64,000 nt of DNA, taken from positions 1,240,001 through 1,304,000 of the forward strand of contig CP060757.1 in assembly GCA_023205875.1 (NCBI GenBank), in the 5' to 3' direction. The DNA is from Chloropicon primus (lineage: Eukaryota). Position numbers and translations under genes: made by a program. The notes beneath the pieces are model-generated. The model did not search any database. It saw only the letters and a program-made list of their open reading frames with translations, and had not been told where the DNA came from. Shown in pieces: positions 4,677 to 12,521 of the stretch; within the stretch, counting starts at the first letter, position 1, and each line of letters starts with the position of its first letter.

Positions 4677-6101
4677 TCACTCGCAAGCGCCTTCGGCCTT
4701 CCCTCGCACCTTCTCCCAGCACGCTTCGAGCTTGCCAAGAAAATGGTCGACGTCCCTCTCCGTCATCCCGATGGCGGCGGCCGCGTTCAGGTAGCTGTGC
4801 GGGTAGGCCGAAGAGTGCGCGCCGTAGTTTACAAATTCGTGCCCGCAGACGGCCTGGCTCTTCCCCGGGGAGTAGACCCTCGCGCCCGAGATGCATCTCT
4901 GGAACAGCATGGAACCCAAGAACCTCGTCCTCTCGTCGGAGCCCCCGCAAGCGCTCTCGCGGAACCCGTCGAGGGTCATTGCGAAAGAGATGGGGTTCCC
5001 TGGGGTCTCCAAGACGCGCTCCCCCTTCGCTGACGCGAAGCTCCTGAGCCTCTGCCCGAGGTAAAGGTACAAGCTTTCCCTCTCCTTCAGGAGATCGGCC
5101 CAGCCCTTGGCCCCGAGGGAGAGCAGGGTGATGGTGACGTCCAGGAGGGGGGACATGGAGGCCCTGCCCGGGTAGGACTTGTCCACCATCTGGGGCACGT
5201 CCGAGAACCCCTTCTTCCCCACTATCACGGCCCCGCCCACGGGCACCATGAAGTTCTTGTCCGTGGACTGCACCACCGCGTCGACCCTTCCCTTCCTCCA
5301 GGAGGACGTGATCTCCTTGCATATCTCCGAGGACTGCACGCCGTAGGCGTTGTTGATGATGTGGGCCACGCCCTGGCGCTTGCACAGCTTCGCGACGTCC
5401 ACGATCTTGTCCGAGGCGCGGGGAGCGAAGCAGCTCGTGGTGGTGAGCACGCACAAGATCTCTCCCCCCTTGGACTCCACCTCGGCCTCCAGCTTGCCCA
5501 CGTCCGTGACCAGCTGGTCGCCCTCGAGCACGTTCTCCACCACCAGCGCTTGCAAATTGGCTGCGTAGATGCACTTGAGGCACGTCTTCTGATCGATCCG
5601 GGGCCACAGCACGTACTTTCCGCTTGGGTTGTGCCGCTTCAGGGCCTGGAGCACCAACGAGAGCGCCATCCCGGTCGCCACCGGCACGGTCGTCACGTAG
5701 CCCACCTCCCCCAACCCCGCGACCTCAAAGGCGTCCTTGACGAGAAAGTTGCAGACCTTGCACAGGAGGGAAGACCCCGCCGCCTTGGGCTGCACGGCGG
5801 ATATGTCCCCCGACCGACCAATGCCGTGGGCGAGGCCGTAGTGCCTGTCGTACACGAGGCGACTGTGGATCCTCCCCTCTCTCTCCCCCACGCCAGCGTT
5901 CTGCAGAAAGTTGTTGCTGTCCATGAGCGCCAGCTCTTTCAAGAAAAGGCGCACCGAGTCCTCGTCCCAGGCCTCGTCCGGCAGCCTCCTATTCGAAAGG
6001 AGCTTCTTGAAAAGCTTCCGCCTCGACGCCAACGCTTGCGCCCCCTGGTTCAGGTACGTCCCGGGCACCATCCCCTCGCAAGGAGACAACCAATCCTCCA
6101 T
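4677..6101 (-). CDS. SEPSECS: O-phosphoseryl-tRNA(Sec) selenium transferase
   Basis: MDSNNF, GEREGR, HGIGRSGDI..QPKAAGSS, WPRIDQKTC, NNAYGVQ, QSTDKNFMVPVGG, YPGRAS. Confidence 0.95.
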   Translation of the reverse strand: MEDWLSPCEGMVPGTYLNQGAQALASRRKLFKKLLSNRRLPDEAWDEDSVRLFLKELALMDSNNFLQNAGVGEREGRIHSRLVYDRHYGLAHGIGRSGDISAVQPKAAGSSLLCKVCNFLVKDAFEVAGLGEVGYVTTVPVATGMALSLVLQALKRHNPSGKYVLWPRIDQKTCLKCIYAANLQALVVENVLEGDQLVTDVGKLEAEVESKGGEILCVLTTTSCFAPRASDKIVDVAKLCKRQGVAHIINNAYGVQSSEICKEITSSWRKGRVDAVVQSTDKNFMVPVGGAVIVGKKGFSDVPQMVDKSYPGRASMSPLLDVTITLLSLGAKGWADLLKERESLYLYLGQRLRSFASAKGERVLETPGNPISFAMTLDGFRESACGGSDERTRFLGSMLFQRCISGARVYSPGKSQAVCGHEFVNYGAHSSAYPHSYLNAAAAIGMTERDVDHFLGKLEACWEKVRGKAEGACE

Positions 6102-6367
6102 CCCTCCCTCCCCCCTCTCGTCCTACGCCATCCTCCCTCCAACTCAACAACAACAACAACAACGTCCTCGCCCTCGGCCGACGACGACGACGGCGCTCGC
6201 GGCGGCCTCTCTGTTGGAGGTTTTCCCCTGTTGGTGGGATTCCAGTGTATACCAGTTTGGTCACACCCAAAGGACAACCCACAAAACGTTTTCTCGTTCT
6301 CACTTGCTGGACAAGGCACTGGTAAAAAATCTAGCCTCGCGAGAGGAAGGGAGGAGGACGCCGGGTG

Positions 6368-6376
6368 AAACCCTAA
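6368..6376 (+). promoter_or_regulatory. Telo-box-like motif AAACCCTAA just upstream of the Fanzor ATG
   Basis: Exact AAACCCTAA ending 5 nt before ATG 6382. Confidence 0.35.
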
Positions 6377-6381
6377 CAGTC

Positions 6382-8553
6382 ATGGCGCGATCAGGGAAGC
6401 GCCGTAAGAAAAAGGAGAAGCAGGGGAGTGGCTCGACGAGTTCCACAAGGAGGTCGCACTCTGGCGAGAGTCATGCTCAGGGCGCTTCGAAGTCGGGGCA
6501 GGAGTCTCCGACGACGGAGCGGCCGTTACTTCGGTTCTGGAATCAGGGTTTAGCCTGGCTCTACGCGTTGTGCCTGCTTCCTATTGCGGACGACCCCGCC
6601 TCTGCGGGTGAGGGTTCGAGCACGCCTCGCAAGAAGCGGGGGGGGAAGCGGAAGGAGACGCCGCTGGACGACCCCGCCTCTGCTTTCGAGGAGGGTTCGA
6701 GCACGCCTCGCAAGAAGCGGGGGGGGAAGCGGAAGGGGCGTCCGCCGGAGGCGGACGCCTCTGCGGGTGAGAGTTCGAGCTCGTCAGGCAAGCCTCGCAA
6801 GAAGCCTCGCAAGAAGGGCAAGAAGAAGAACAAGAAGAAGGGTAAGAAGAAGAAGAACAAGAGGGGGAAGAAAGCAGGGAAGCAGCCGGGTGGCTTGGCG
6901 GACGACAGCGTGAAGAAGACCTGGTTCTCATCGATCAAGAGAGAACTTGAAGAGGTAAAGTGTCCGAAGACGGGATGGAGGTCGTGCTTGAACCTTCCAG
7001 AAGATTCTGTGGTATCCGTCGAGACATTGCAGTCGCCCGCCAAAAGGAAGAGGGGGCAGAAACTGAAGACCTCCAAGCTATTGTCGGAGCGAACGGTGAT
7101 ACGGACGAGGAAGCTGAGGATGCGCTTGAACCCTGAGCAGGCGAAGTGCCTTTGCAACTGGATGGGAGCTGCGCGTTTCACATACAACAAGTGTTTGGAG
7201 GCGGTCAAGAAGGAGGGTTTTCCGCTGGTTTGGACCGTCCTGCTGGACAGATTTGTGACGGCCAAACCGCGACGCCCTGAGGTCTTTGAGGGCCTGGAGA
7301 AAGAGCTGAAAGAAATCCAATGCTCTCCACGGCCATGGACAAAACAGGAGGCAGAGCTTTTCGCGGCCAGAGAGAAGAGACTCGAGAGCCAAATTGGAGG
7401 CAGAGCTTTTCGCATCCAAGTCGCCAAGGACCGGGACTACGTTAGCGGGGCCTTTGTAAATCAGGAGCATCCTTGGCTGAAGGATACCCCCTGTGCCATC
7501 AGACAAGCTGCCGTGCGAAGTCTCATCAAGGCATGGGATTCGAACACCGCGAAGCAGGAAGCGATGAAGGAGCGCGGCGAGGAGAAGGGGCACCGCTTCG
7601 TTCTCAAGTATCGTCAACGTCAGCAACCGAGCTCTTGGACCATTGAAATTGATGCAAGAGAGTTAAAGAACGTGGAGACGATCGAAAGGCCAAACACGAG
7701 GCACAAGGATGACACCAAGCACAACAAACGACGCAAGTGGACCAAGCTGGAGGTGTTCAAGAAGAAGATGGCCGGCGGGCCCCTGTACTTGACGGAGGAG
7801 ATCCCCGGGGGCAAGATCGAGGGTGCCGTGAAGATCACAAGAAATCGCCTTGGGCAGTTCCACATGCACATTCCCATCGCGACGCCATGGGATCGCCTGC
7901 CACCCCTGAAGCCTGAGAACAAGCGGAAGGTTGTCGCCCTGGATCCGGGAGTCAGGACCTTTCAGACGTCGTACTCGCCGCAAGAAGGCGTCGGGGAGTA
8001 TGCCAAGGGCGAGCGAGGCTTCGCGAGGCTGTTCAACCTCTGCTGGAGGATTGATGAGATCATTTCCGAGCGCAAAGACCCAAAGGTGAAGCTCCCTTAC
8101 CTCGACCGCCGCGACTTGAAGAGACAGCAATACGCCTGCATGGAGAAACTTCGAGGTCTGACGAACGAGCTTCACAAAAAGGTAGCCAACGATCTATGCA
8201 GGAGGTTCGACACAATCCTCCTCCCGGAGTTCAAGTCCCAAGACATGGTGAAGAAGAACAACAACGGGAGACGCCGAGTGATCAGGAAGAAGACGGCTCG
8301 CACGCTCTTGACGTTGAGGCACTATGCGTTCAGAACGTTCTTGGCTTCCAAGGTGCTCTTGCACGGCAGTGAGCTGGCGATCGTGACGGAGGAGTACACC
8401 TCCAAGACCTGTGGCAGGTGCGGACACATCAAGAAGAACCTGGGTGGAGCAGAGGTGTACAAGTGCCAGAAGTGTGGCTTCAAGTGCGGTCGGGATGTGA
8501 ACGGGGCACGCAACGTCCTCCTGAAGCACTTGCGTCAACCAAAAAGTGTGTAA
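6382..8553 (+). CDS. Fanzor2-type (TnpB/IS607-related) RNA-guided endonuclease, ~723 aa from ATG 6382
   Basis: OrfB-type N-terminal helix (RKLRMRLNPEQ..WMGAARFTYN), RuvC-I ALDPG (D codon 7942), ILLPEF, EEYTSKTC (E codon 8389), Zn ribbon CGRC/CQKC, RuvC-III RDVNGARN (D codon 8494); Lys/Arg-rich N-terminus. Confidence 0.92.
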   Translation: MARSGKRRKKKEKQGSGSTSSTRRSHSGESHAQGASKSGQESPTTERPLLRFWNQGLAWLYALCLLPIADDPASAGEGSSTPRKKRGGKRKETPLDDPASAFEEGSSTPRKKRGGKRKGRPPEADASAGESSSSSGKPRKKPRKKGKKKNKKKGKKKKNKRGKKAGKQPGGLADDSVKKTWFSSIKRELEEVKCPKTGWRSCLNLPEDSVVSVETLQSPAKRKRGQKLKTSKLLSERTVIRTRKLRMRLNPEQAKCLCNWMGAARFTYNKCLEAVKKEGFPLVWTVLLDRFVTAKPRRPEVFEGLEKELKEIQCSPRPWTKQEAELFAAREKRLESQIGGRAFRIQVAKDRDYVSGAFVNQEHPWLKDTPCAIRQAAVRSLIKAWDSNTAKQEAMKERGEEKGHRFVLKYRQRQQPSSWTIEIDARELKNVETIERPNTRHKDDTKHNKRRKWTKLEVFKKKMAGGPLYLTEEIPGGKIEGAVKITRNRLGQFHMHIPIATPWDRLPPLKPENKRKVVALDPGVRTFQTSYSPQEGVGEYAKGERGFARLFNLCWRIDEIISERKDPKVKLPYLDRRDLKRQQYACMEKLRGLTNELHKKVANDLCRRFDTILLPEFKSQDMVKKNNNGRRRVIRKKTARTLLTLRHYAFRTFLASKVLLHGSELAIVTEEYTSKTCGRCGHIKKNLGGAEVYKCQKCGFKCGRDVNGARNVLLKHLRQPKSV
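6588..6810 (+). repeat. In-frame tandem duplication (period 78 bp; two copies plus a partial third) encoding NLS-like repeats
   Basis: GGACGACCCCGCCTCTGC...GAGGGTTCGAGCACGCCTCGCAAGAAGCGGGGGGGGAAGCGGAAGG at 6588-6655 and 6666-6736; partial copy from 6751. Confidence 0.9.
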
Positions 8554-8735
8554 CTCCTCAGGGTTGCACATACGTTTGTTAGTACGGGCTGCCGTGCGTG
8601 GGCGGAAGTATTCGTTCATGTACGGTGGAATGGTCGTGGTAGGGCCGAATTACCCTGCCGAGAAACTTACAAACTCGGTGAAACGACCTTTGCAGAAAAC
8701 TAACAGGTAAGTAGTGGCCGGCCTTCCTCCGTGTT
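8546..8735 (+). ncRNA. Candidate Fanzor omegaRNA (scaffold ~8546-8712, guide from ~8713)
   Basis: Hairpins 8546-8571 and 8591-8626; stem 8632-8637/8683-8688 enclosing two hairpins; closing stem 8577-8583/8699-8705; pseudoknot 8665-8670/8707-8712; many G-U pairs, which favour the + strand. Confidence 0.75.
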
Positions 8736-9155
8736 TCTCTCTTTCAGTGGAAAGGAGAACTTGCCTTTGTGCTTCCAGTATTGACTGTGATTTCCCTACC
8801 GTCCTTTCGTGACTTTTCTGTGTGCTGTTTTTGATCTGATGTCTGAACACCATAACACTCTCCCTCCCTCTCAGTTTTCCTGAAAACTCACGGTCAGGGA
8901 ACTCCAGGCCCTCCCAGAAGGCAGGGAGAACTCCAAGGCAGTGACCTTGGCGTCGAGGAAGGGAGGGGAAGGACAGGTTTGCAGAGGAGGCAGGAGGCAG
9001 GGAGGCGGGGCGATGGGTGCTTGGTAGCCCTGGCCGCGGTTGGCGATTCGTGAGACCAAGCGTCCGAGAAATTTCGAGGGAGGGGGCGGGACGTCTTCCA
9101 CATGGTCTCGCGGGAGGGGAAATAGACCACTACTTGGCACACGAGAGTCCTTGGG

Positions 9156-12100
9156 ATGGGAAAGTGGATAGAAGCGCTCGTCGTTCTGGGGAGGGCGGAC
9201 GCGTCCCCGGAGGCCAGCGCGCGGACTTCGAGAGCGGCGAGCTCTGAGTTCGACAACCGGGCGTCCATATTGAGGTGCATTCCCGGGGAGGCGAGGGAGC
9301 ACCTCCCACCGCAGCTCAGTGTCTGCTGCCTTCCCACGGGAATCCAGAGAAAGCCTTTCCACCACAGGTCGCTGAGCAAGTACTACGACAAGTACAATGT
9401 CGTCCTCACGGACTCAACGGGCAACAAGACCTACGGCTACTGCTGCACCTTCTTCGACGTTTGCTCCGACAGGGTTCCGCGGGAGGGGGAGAGCCAGGAA
9501 GACGAGTTTGCTTACACAAAGTGTCTCTGCCTGATATCCAAAGACCCTCTCTACTCGACCTTCGAGACCTTGGTGCAGACGATGTACTCCACTTGCTTCT
9601 ACCAGCGGTCGGTGCTGAGCTACAACTACGACCTCCTCGCCGAAATTGTGACGAGAGTGAACCTCTTGCCAAGAGAGCTGGGCAGTCCCATGCACCTCAT
9701 TCTTCCGATCGACAGCAGGACCATTCACCTGGAGTTCGAGTGCCTCCCGGAGGGTTCGCCCTCCGAGATTCAGATCGACGACGTGGTCGGGATCAAGCCA
9801 AAGGCCTTGCTGTGCCTCTTCGAGGCGGTGCTGCTGGAGAGGAAGGTGATTCTGAGGTCAGAGAGCAAAGCCAAATTGAGCGGCGTGGCAGAGGCTCTGT
9901 GCGAGCTCTTGTACCCCATGACCTGGCAGCACATCTACATCCCGATCGTTCCCCAGGGGCTGACAGAGTATTTGGAGGCGCCCACGCCATACTTGATGGG
10001 CGTTCTCTCCAGCATCTCGACTCACAGCTTGAACTACGATCAGTCGATCGAGATCAACATCGACGACTCCACCTGCCACTTTGGGGAAGACTTCTCCCTG
10101 CCCTTCTGTGACGACTTCGTGCTGCTCAGGAAGCGGCTGGAGCAGCTGCCACGGGAGGGCGGCCACTTGGATCGCAACAGGTACTTGAAGCACAGGGAGA
10201 GGGATATCAGGTCCTTGTTCTTGGAGTTCGTGACCAACTTGTTGGCAGAGGCCCGCAAGCACTTTCAGCAAAACAAAAGAGACTTCGGGGAGGTCAGCGG
10301 CCAGGACCCTGACTTTCTGCAATCGTTCATGGAGACGCAGATGTTCCAGAATTTCTTTCACAATTCTCCGGGAATGCTCGACGCCCAAGAATTCGATGCG
10401 ATGAGGTCCCGCTTGACGGAGAGGTTTTCCCTCGTGTCCGAGGCGCAGGCAGTCGGCAAGCAAGTCGAGATCGTGAGCTTCCAATCCATGCTGCCGTCGG
10501 CTGATATAGCCAGCGACCTGGAAGGAGCAAAGAAAAACTCCCTGGCCAATCTGAGCGGTGCGGAGGGGTGGAGGAGCAAGGCGGAGGACAAAATGTACTC
10601 GAAGCTTCAAATGGAGGCAATAAAGAGCGAGAGGATTGTAGACTTGCACGAGTCTGGCCTGCAAGTCACTCCTGATGGTGGTGGAAACAGCAGCGATTTC
10701 TCGTACAACGAGAAGATCGAGGAGCTCTTCGATTGCGTGTACTTATATTTTCAGACGAAATACGGGAACCTTCTGTTCGACACGAGTTCCTCGATTGTCA
10801 GGCAGTGCATCGATAGCGTGGGCAGCATGGAGCATCTGACGGCAATGGTGGACGTCTTCAAGTACACTATTATGGAATCAAAGAGCAAAACGATAGAGTT
10901 CCACAGCCTGGACACCATGCAGAAGTTGATTCCCGTGTTCGAGGACATTGTCATGAAAGCAATCCACTCGGGCGACCACATCTTGGCGTTTGGGGTGCTG
11001 GCCATGAGCCTGTTCATCGAGTACAAGCCCGTGCCTGATGGGGGCGAGGGCATCACGGCTTTTGCGCACGTCGTAAACGATTTCCCGAAGAACAAATCCT
11101 TCTGGGTGGAGTTGGTGTCTTCGATCGTCGGGGGCGCTCAAAATTTGGAAGCAGAGGAGTCGGCGGCCGGCTACGAGTTTGTCGCAGATCTCCTGCTCCT
11201 CTGCTCGGTGATATTTGGTGATGACACCTGGTATGAAGCTTCAGTTCACGATCTCGCCGAGAAGATCACGATGAGCGAGCTCGAAGCAAAGGACATCAAA
11301 GTCATGTGCCTCCTGAGCAAGTCCAAATTTAGTCCAAGGGCAGTCTCCATGTGCCCAGATTCTAACTGGAACTTGCTAGGGAAGTTCCAAGCCGCGGAGT
11401 TGAGAGAAATGGAGGTGCGCCTACCTTCAGGAGAGTTGAAGGCAGCCCCGAATTCTCCCGTGAAGTCTATGGACTCGTTTTCGAACGTGATCATCGCTGC
11501 CACGTGCGATGCCCAGGTCCGCTTGTATAGTAAACCTTCAGGGGGGTCCAAGATACTGAGGGCTCCCGCATCGGTGCTGAGGCAGAGATCACGCCTCAAT
11601 CTCGTGAAGTTTAGTCGGGAAGGGTCCAACTTCTTCATTGTATCAAACAGAATCGGAGTCTGGGACACGAGATCCTTGAAAAGCATTCGTCACATGGAGG
11701 TGGAAGACACTCACTCGTGTTTTCGCGTCAGAAAGAACAATTCGGGGAAGGACTCCATTCTGGCTGGGACTGCAAAGGGAAGTTGCAAGCTGTGGGACCA
11801 CCTGTCCTCGGCCTCAGCTGCCTGCCTATCCTTTGAAGGCCATTCCAAGCAGGTGACAAAGATAACGTGCCTGGAGGGAGACAATAATCTGTTTGTATCC
11901 TCTTCCCGGGACGGTAGAGCTCTGCTGTGGGACGTGAGAAAGAACGGGGAGCCGGTGCACACGATGGTTGGGCACGAGTCTTGGATCACGGACCACCGAA
12001 TTTTCTACTGTGGCGACGACCCCTATCTCGTGTGCGGCAGCGACGATTGGACGAGCACGGTTTGGAACCTCAGCAACGGAAGCCTCTGCTGCACCTACTA

Positions 12101-12521
12101 TGGCCATACCAGTCCCGTTTGTTCGCTTGCGGTGTGCTCCAGCGATCCCGAAGAAGGTCCTGTGATTGCTTCTGGCGATTGCACAGGGTCGATCCAGCTC
12201 TGGAGAGCTACTCTGGGCGATGTGTACACTTCTGGCGCTACCCTCGAGTCTCTGTCTCTGAGAACGAGAGGCGATCCGGTACTCAAAGTGGAGTGCCAGG
12301 GGTCGAAGCCCTTGATCGCCTGCCACTCAAGCAACACTGTGGCATCGTGGGAGCTCTGCGGCAGCGAGGGTGACCTTAGCGCAAACTGCAAGGCTTACCT
12401 CGACCTGAGTCTGCACTTCACCGCATGCAAAGTGGACTACGCCACGAATTTCGTATACAGTGGTTGCGCAAACGGCAACGTTGTGGCGTGGAGCCTCGCC
12501 GAGGGGATGTGCTCCTTGTGA
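9156..12521 (+). CDS. DENN-domain plus C-terminal WD40 protein (SCD1-like Rab GEF)
   Basis: uDENN/DENN motifs (VLTDSTGNKTYG, LLERKVIL, LLYPMTWQHIYIPI, EAPTPYLMG) and C-terminal WD40 repeats. Confidence 0.85.
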   Translation: MGKWIEALVVLGRADASPEASARTSRAASSEFDNRASILRCIPGEAREHLPPQLSVCCLPTGIQRKPFHHRSLSKYYDKYNVVLTDSTGNKTYGYCCTFFDVCSDRVPREGESQEDEFAYTKCLCLISKDPLYSTFETLVQTMYSTCFYQRSVLSYNYDLLAEIVTRVNLLPRELGSPMHLILPIDSRTIHLEFECLPEGSPSEIQIDDVVGIKPKALLCLFEAVLLERKVILRSESKAKLSGVAEALCELLYPMTWQHIYIPIVPQGLTEYLEAPTPYLMGVLSSISTHSLNYDQSIEINIDDSTCHFGEDFSLPFCDDFVLLRKRLEQLPREGGHLDRNRYLKHRERDIRSLFLEFVTNLLAEARKHFQQNKRDFGEVSGQDPDFLQSFMETQMFQNFFHNSPGMLDAQEFDAMRSRLTERFSLVSEAQAVGKQVEIVSFQSMLPSADIASDLEGAKKNSLANLSGAEGWRSKAEDKMYSKLQMEAIKSERIVDLHESGLQVTPDGGGNSSDFSYNEKIEELFDCVYLYFQTKYGNLLFDTSSSIVRQCIDSVGSMEHLTAMVDVFKYTIMESKSKTIEFHSLDTMQKLIPVFEDIVMKAIHSGDHILAFGVLAMSLFIEYKPVPDGGEGITAFAHVVNDFPKNKSFWVELVSSIVGGAQNLEAEESAAGYEFVADLLLLCSVIFGDDTWYEASVHDLAEKITMSELEAKDIKVMCLLSKSKFSPRAVSMCPDSNWNLLGKFQAAELREMEVRLPSGELKAAPNSPVKSMDSFSNVIIAATCDAQVRLYSKPSGGSKILRAPASVLRQRSRLNLVKFSREGSNFFIVSNRIGVWDTRSLKSIRHMEVEDTHSCFRVRKNNSGKDSILAGTAKGSCKLWDHLSSASAACLSFEGHSKQVTKITCLEGDNNLFVSSSRDGRALLWDVRKNGEPVHTMVGHESWITDHRIFYCGDDPYLVCGSDDWTSTVWNLSNGSLCCTYYGHTSPVCSLAVCSSDPEEGPVIASGDCTGSIQLWRATLGDVYTSGATLESLSLRTRGDPVLKVECQGSKPLIACHSSNTVASWELCGSEGDLSANCKAYLDLSLHFTACKVDYATNFVYSGCANGNVVAWSLAEGMCSL

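Follow-up and report, generated by a model that had tools for sequence, protein, structure and literature searches.

Fanzor2 guide RNAs and the Chloropicon primus locus

The guide RNAs (omegaRNAs) of ApmFz2, IS607 TnpB and pro-Fanzors have in common a pairing between a 5' part of the RNA and the bases immediately preceding the guide, according to the available text of PMC11832414, PMC10530073 and PMC10711439; in ApmFz2 it is the first 45 nucleotides (nt) that pair with positions -4 to 0 (PMC11832414). The guide of the ApmFz2/IS607 systems is the contiguous flank that follows a GG, and their target-adjacent motif (TAM) is GGG. In Fanzor2* elements, which are dispersed, carry terminal inverted repeats (TIRs) and a target-site duplication (TSD) and lack an intact TnpA, the scaffold appears to include the TIR and TSD, as described in the text of PMC10711439. 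Here we describe a Fanzor2 gene, and the folded RNA at its 3' end, in a 64,000-nt stretch of Chloropicon primus DNA (contig CP060757.1, positions 1,240,001 to 1,304,000; hereafter the window). Compared with the text of the published Fanzor2* model, figures aside, this locus differs in that the predicted scaffold stops 151 nt short of the element end and is joined to the flank by splicing, with AG and a spliceosomal donor in place of GG and a contiguous guide. We propose that the guide is the host flank, which would be attached to the scaffold by pre-mRNA splicing.

The element and its gene comprise the following features.

6207..6211, + strand: left copy of the target-site duplication, CTCTC (5 bp), from the sequence
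6212..8857, + strand: DNA transposon ending in TGTT...AACA, with imperfect TIRs, non-autonomous and multi-copy, from contig depth, loose contig ends and the TSD
6382..8553, + strand: Fanzor2 open reading frame (ORF) of 723 amino acids (aa), from domains, motifs and a structure match
8858..8862, + strand: right copy of the target-site duplication, CTCTC, from the sequence

The element, 2646 nt long with the termini CTCTC/TGTT...AACA/CTCTC, is the known TIR- and TSD-bearing Fanzor2* element of C. primus as presented in the available text of PMC10711439 and in the preprint bioRxiv 10.1101/2023.08.09.552727, with which it shares a 97% identical protein family member, the non-autonomous state, the TIRs and a 5-nt TSD that is variable in this family. 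It has the dispersed copies and lacks the intact TnpA of that class, and 25 'IS605 transposase' genes of the family are listed for C. primus in Supplementary Data 6 of PMC6731263. Its extent is visible in the DNA runs X2 and X4, where contig depth lies in the thousands from ~6200 to 8860 and at ~100-140 outside; at the right boundary unique sequence is back from a contig starting at 8831, and loose ends of DNA contigs lie at 8857.

Judged from its sequence, the ORF encodes an intact Fanzor2, for which RNA-guided, TAM-dependent cleavage is putative and hinted at by indirect scars only. The protein has HTH_OrfB_IS605 and Cas12f1-like TNB domains and the RuvC residues D521 (in ALDPG), E671 (the shifted RuvC-II glutamate) and D705, with E671 six residues ahead of a zinc finger whose CxxC motifs lie at 677 and 695. 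ApmFz2 (9b0l) is the best solved match both by sequence (E 4e-19) and by Foldseek on the predicted fold (E 1e-13), and the closest database proteins are C. primus 'IS605 transposases' with 90-98% identity, one of them at 97%. The DPG motif, the shifted glutamate, a TnpB-like fold closest to Fanzor2 and a relation to IS607, visible in a TnpA remnant, agree with this assignment; the DPG and shifted-glutamate RuvC site and the long peripheral RNA stems described below are shared with ApmFz2 and IS607 TnpB. The profile alignment to ApmFz2 ends short of the TAM-reading residues of ApmFz2, and therefore no structure-based TAM prediction is given.

Scaffold end and splice joint

A first-pass annotation of the locus, made from the sequence, had placed an omegaRNA with a terminal pseudoknot at 8546-8735. 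The five pairings that it proposed are all found (5/5), and the RNA can be divided as follows.

8546..8571, + strand: hairpin across the stop codon (TAA, 8551-8553), 5' scaffold stem, 11/11 pairs
8573..8586, + strand: mini-hairpin; its 8-nt loop, 8576-8583, provides the predicted pseudoknot with its 5' strand; motif present in L008-L010
8589..8628, + strand: long G-U-rich stem-loop, peripheral, from base pairing; stem shorter in relatives
8632..8688, + strand: three-way stem domain, peripheral, stems paired 6/6, 7/7 and 5/5
8699..8706, + strand: predicted 3' strand of the pseudoknot, after an A-rich linker; scaffold end, by homology to relatives

The long stem at 8591-8626 has 16/16 pairs, including six G-U pairs, closed by an AGUA loop, and can be extended to 18 pairs. 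Stem 4, UUGUUAGU/ACUAACAG at 8577-8583/8699-8705, has 7/7 pairs, or 8/8 counting U8576-G8706. RNA-level structure on the + strand, which had been claimed as well, is borne out by folding: 8546-8735 gives z -3.20 on the + strand (2/200 shuffles as good) and +0.79 on the - strand, and 8546-8706 gives -4.51 versus -0.80. Fourteen control windows of 161 nt within the element all lie above the scaffold's -4.51 (z -2.75 to +1.49), and 8707-8857 is unstructured (z +0.88). Nested folding, which is unable to represent a pseudoknot, gives similar openness of the guide for the spliced and the unspliced RNA (0.50 vs 0.51). Within 6000-9300 no Rfam family was found at the gathering score; of the four weak matches none lies on the scaffold and none is a group I ribozyme. 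One contig skips the 85 nt at 8594-8678, and several contigs in four runs stop at 8593; the peripheral stems appear to be missing or replaced in one subfamily of the element.

The end of the scaffold is defined by four metagenomic relatives, L008-L011, whose Fanzors are 48-57% identical to that of the window and form one clade with it (100 SH-aLRT, quick tree of 115 rows). Three of the four (L008, L009 and L010) have a hairpin at the stop codon, followed by a mini-hairpin of the form GT-(8 nt)-AC, the loop of which pairs with a strand located beyond an A-rich linker. This motif, defined after these sequences were seen, arises by chance in 59 (window), 28 (L008), 49 (L009) and 33 (L010) of 5000 shuffles, and is present in 1/95 distant loci. 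Relative to stem 4 of the window, L009 has one pair changed on both sides, and L010 has 4/8 pairs changed on both sides and one broken. In a formal count over the window, L008 and L009, 30/30 cells are paired, compared with 20-65% for slid partners; L010 is absent from this count because MAFFT misaligned it, and its pairs were tabulated by script.

In L008, an IS607 element whose TnpA is a Pfam Resolvase, the flanks form a single reading frame across GG at the matching scaffold-end point, and the 83-nt scaffold of L010 is found in three copies, the match to the gene-linked copy ending two bases past the 6-nt core. These two boundaries are independent and coincide. The window end ACUAAC-AG (8706) corresponds to ACUAAC-GG, L008 and L009 having GG where the window has AG, and the two bases that end the scaffold are identical to the two that precede the target (GG in L008, TA in L010, AG before the predicted target in the window). 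Among distant IS607-type loci the end is definable by a close partner in 66/99, and 29 of these 66 ends show GG preceded by a 5-nt strand that has its complement upstream. By this homology the scaffold is predicted to span 8546-8706, with stem 4 as its conserved pseudoknot immediately before the guide; the scaffold ends at 8706 and the element at 8857. The annotated omegaRNA thus stands as a kind of scaffold closing in a pseudoknot, whereas its choice of pseudoknot and its guide start yield to the relatives and to a splice joint.

8707..8874, + strand: 168-nt GT-AG intron with donor GTAAGT and acceptor CAG in the host flank; joint in RNA-type contigs
8875..8895, + strand: host-flank exon joined to the scaffold, predicted guide, its length extrapolated from other Fanzor2s; joint seen in contigs

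Three RNA-type runs and one DNA run were compared over 8440-9040. The joint 8706->8875 (GT..AG, 168 nt) is present in contigs of X1 and X3, from two studies, and absent from contigs of the DNA run X4; a separate comparison of four runs lists none. Its GT-AG ends and its presence in RNA and not in DNA agree with a spliceosomal intron, the RNA status of the runs being a software guess. At 8707-8709, single contigs of X1, X3, X7 and X6 turn into four different sequences, a pattern that would result from other copies joining this donor to flanks of their own; X6 is labelled DNA, and its pattern is RNA-like, including a contig that starts at 8872. The contigs of X1 and X3 leave 8860-8871 uncovered, and contig depth, a weak measure, drops past 8712 from >1200 to 35-330, more than fourfold. 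The spliced form seems to be dominant, and some unspliced contig is present in X3.

The + strand of the element (2646 nt) contains a single GTAAGT, the general donor consensus when it follows an AG exon end. Within the U-rich intron lie branch-like sites, at 8831-8848, as well as the right TIR and TSD. The last 79 bases of the element (8779-8857) are free of AG (P 0.046), and the acceptor is therefore the first AG of the host flank. The joint thus attaches the scaffold to the host flank exactly at the expected guide start: the intron opens at the first base of the expected guide, and the TIR and TSD are spliced out with it. The mean C. primus intron is 152 bp according to the available text of PMC6731263.

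Proposed mechanism, possible traces of cutting and alternatives

Building on the directly supported parts of this system, i.e., the structure, the splice joint, the element ends and a scaffold end placed by homology, we propose, with a probability of roughly 0.6, that scaffold 8546-8706 is spliced to the host flank, which serves as guide for targets behind an AG-ending TAM; the loading of the spliced RNA, the TAM, the cleavage and the benefit to the element are inferred. Judging from the remnants, an IS607 unit (TnpA, Fanzor2 and a GG-ending scaffold) would have been captured inside a TIR DNA transposon, which would have left the old right end 151 nt from the new end and cut off the scaffold from the variable flank. 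A donor may then have arisen at the old end (AACGG to AACAG/GTAAGT), along with the AG-free tail, so that splicing would reconnect scaffold and flank. The Fanzor2 transcript would fold and splice from the last base of the scaffold to the first host AG beyond the transposon, and the protein would bind the scaffold together with the first 11-21 nt of the host exon as guide. The target of each copy would be the flank immediately to the right of that copy's insertion, behind an AG-ending TAM supplied by the acceptor and whatever the TSD or excision footprint. Cuts in the flank would lead to repair with the homologue or sister as template, as happens in TnpB homing. Native Fanzor2 guides are 11-21 nt long, and the TAM of MmeFz2, TAG, is a precedent for an AG-ending TAM, according to the available text of PMC10432273. 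We regard as evenly balanced the stronger statement that the spliceosome programs Fanzor in vivo, with a 3' splice site that doubles as TAM, a host exon as guide and cutting beside the insertion, the ACUUAC loop possibly masking either the donor or, in the unspliced RNA, the self-targeting seed.

Possible traces of such cutting are found in the intron and at empty alleles.

8721..8731, + strand: indel hotspot between copies, +15 to +25 from the scaffold end, from contigs; possible self-cleavage scars

The copies differ in the hotspot by indels and one short duplication, and two more hotspot alleles are visible in the available part of Supplementary Data 8 of PMC6731263. The nick positions of ApmFz2, 15-21 in the available text of PMC10530073, correspond to 8721-8727 for an unspliced guide from 8707 behind CAG. 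A motif search of Supplementary Data 8 found three heterozygous insertions of the element, and at both right-end insertions (2/2) flank of 25 and 26 nt is absent from the empty allele. The missing flank exceeds the 5-nt TSD by 20-21 nt, AG falls within its first 5 nt in both cases, and the losses are suggestive of a cut ~20 nt into a flank guide. With just three heterozygous insertions found by motif versus 25 listed genes, most copies may be homozygous, which homing or low heterozygosity could explain. The candidate guides, spliced or unspliced, have no close second match in the window, only 3-mismatch matches at best.

Several points weigh against the spliced guide. The RNA status of X1, X3 and X7 is guessed by software, and assembled contigs cannot reveal a discrete omegaRNA, its strand or its level. 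The AG-free tail, at P 0.046, is just mildly unusual. The pseudoknot motif is defined post hoc and is missing from L011, and covariation is not significant on the three MAFFT-aligned rows (one compensatory pair; 166/500 shuffles as high). The hotspot lies inside the intron and is TC-rich, so that slippage could explain its indels. The flank losses fit a guide starting right after the TSD equally well, amount to n=2 long-read calls with their far ends out of view, and may represent a long duplication of 25-26 nt instead of a loss. With TAM and target wholly in the flank, filled and empty alleles are alike to the nuclease, and the proposal offers no mechanism for the asymmetry that homing requires, nor for avoidance of self-cutting.

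Splicing may instead disarm the RNA: the loaded form would be the unspliced scaffold with an element-internal guide from 8707 that targets the element's own copies, and splicing would remove or dilute this guide, in an IStron-like conflict, or just make a 3' untranslated region (UTR). The nick positions at the hotspot and the unspliced contig of X3 suit this explanation, and in IStrons splicing and guide function are mutually exclusive according to the available text of PMC13565253. A fixed self-targeting guide, however, brings no locus-specific benefit and leaves the flank losses at empty alleles unexplained, and splicing here keeps the entire scaffold and places the new 3' neighbour exactly at the guide position; we consider this explanation unlikely. 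If the published Fanzor2* arrangement applied, an unspliced omegaRNA would extend through the right TIR and TSD, to 8862, with a guide from 8863 onwards, a register that fits the losses of 20-21 nt beyond the TSD well. The unstructured 8707-8857, the closure of the homologous pseudoknot at 8706, the variable TSD and the gap over 8860-8871 in the RNA contigs of X1 and X3 make it distinctly improbable.

We find it slightly more improbable still that the scaffold is a vestige followed by an ordinary 3'-UTR intron, and that the protein no longer uses a flank guide. TnpA has decayed, and since AG/GTAAGT is the general consensus a donor could have arisen at the scaffold end by chance; yet the RuvC site and zinc finger are intact, the scaffold is near-invariant among copies as seen in contigs while the next 25 nt are variable, and the sole GTAAGT in 2646 nt lies on the scaffold boundary. 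Least credible of all is the pseudoknot favoured by the first-pass annotation, between loop ACUUAC (8665-8670, three-way domain) and GUAAGU (8707-8712), with a guide from 8713-8718. All 6/6 pairs can form, and in a distant Thiotrichaceae clade the end is GTAAG(A/T)G, with a CTTAC further upstream, which is counted as a resemblance only; that clade stands far from the window on the quick tree, where L008-L011 belong to the window's fully supported clade. The pairing has no counterpart in 3/3 close relatives, ACUUAC arises in 302/5000 scaffold shuffles, the GUAAGU strand is spliced out, and the contig that skips 8594-8678 loses the loop and retains stem 4. GUAAGU being a used splice donor, a guide at 8713-8718 lies in an intron of the element. 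Copies are conserved in the contigs up to 8857, ~140 nt beyond 8720, an outcome that the annotation itself had named as contrary to it, and a guide from 8713 would be inside the element. The ACUUAC/GUAAGU pairing may still lock the donor or the seed of the unspliced RNA. The Thiotrichaceae loci (L037-L085) are a long-branch, pro-Fanzor-like clade with the GTAAG(A/T)G end instead of GG and the CTTAC partner within the ORF.

The spliced-guide proposal has partial parallels. Introner-type DNA transposons are TIR transposons that give one splice site and co-opt the other from the host; they splice out entirely and carry no guided nuclease, whereas here only the last 151 nt and 17 nt of flank are removed. 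IStrons, as described in the available text of PMC10690162 and PMC13565253, likewise use one RNA end for splicing and guide function in an IS607/IS605 element, with group I splicing and omegaRNA coupled antagonistically. Unlike in IStrons, where a group I ribozyme removes the whole element, only 8707-8874 is removed here, by a GT-AG intron that starts after the scaffold, retains it and brings the flank in. No description of a spliced guide was found in the literature searched, subscription journals being mostly outside the search; the available text of PMC10432273, PMC11423790, PMC10530073 and PMC12301720 holds none, and 'splic' and 'intron' have no occurrence in the preprint.

If the proposal is true, splicing of a pre-mRNA would be a new way of building a guide RNA in this enzyme family, and it would offer an answer to how a bacterial IS607 nuclease keeps a programmable guide inside a eukaryotic cut-and-paste transposon with a variable TSD, differently from the published model in which the TSD becomes scaffold. 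The role of Fanzors in their hosts is stated as unknown in PMC10432273, in its available text; with ~25 copies, heterozygous insertions among them, and possible cut scars in the small diploid genome of this alga, the question becomes testable with existing data. In practical terms, the scaffold boundary for enzyme tests is set at 8546-8706, and an AG-ending TAM is predicted.

TnpA remnant, related loci and neighbouring genes

6435..7145, + strand: IS607 TnpA (serine recombinase), decayed and interrupted by stops, in another frame, from tblastn with the L008 TnpA

Two stretches of the remnant match, one of 90 aa with E 1e-10 and one of 63 aa with E 2.5e-4. The Fanzor has a long, basic N-terminal extension (6382-7100), which overlaps the decayed TnpA frame and contains 81-nt repeats; the same overprinting is found in L008 and L009, where TnpA is still recognisable. 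Element copies were seen through assembled contigs and one published table; blastn found no second copy in the 64-kb window, and locus searches with the single protein gave no match. Consensus strings of the loose ends at 8857 (agreement 0.54-0.68) are contig mixtures and were not used as flanks.

In L008 the IS607-Fanzor2 insertion at GG (64-167, 2441-2630) interrupts a host reading frame, whose right part is hydrolase-like by eye and has no Pfam match. The contig of L010 (727-1456, 3311-3662) carries a viral-type poly(A) polymerase gene together with the Fanzor2 relative, two stand-alone scaffold copies on the opposite strand from that relative, and a 270-nt duplication that provides a near-perfect target of the gene-linked guide after CCTA. 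A scan of viral contigs with the scaffold pattern gave 13 matches, with a Fanzor gene nearby in 0/13.

The element is located between a DENN/WD40 gene and a divergent SepSecS gene. The spliced contig of X3, 3758 nt long, continues over 8875-12521, far enough for the downstream DENN/WD40 gene, to which the element may supply an upstream exon, the contig being no proof of a single transcript.

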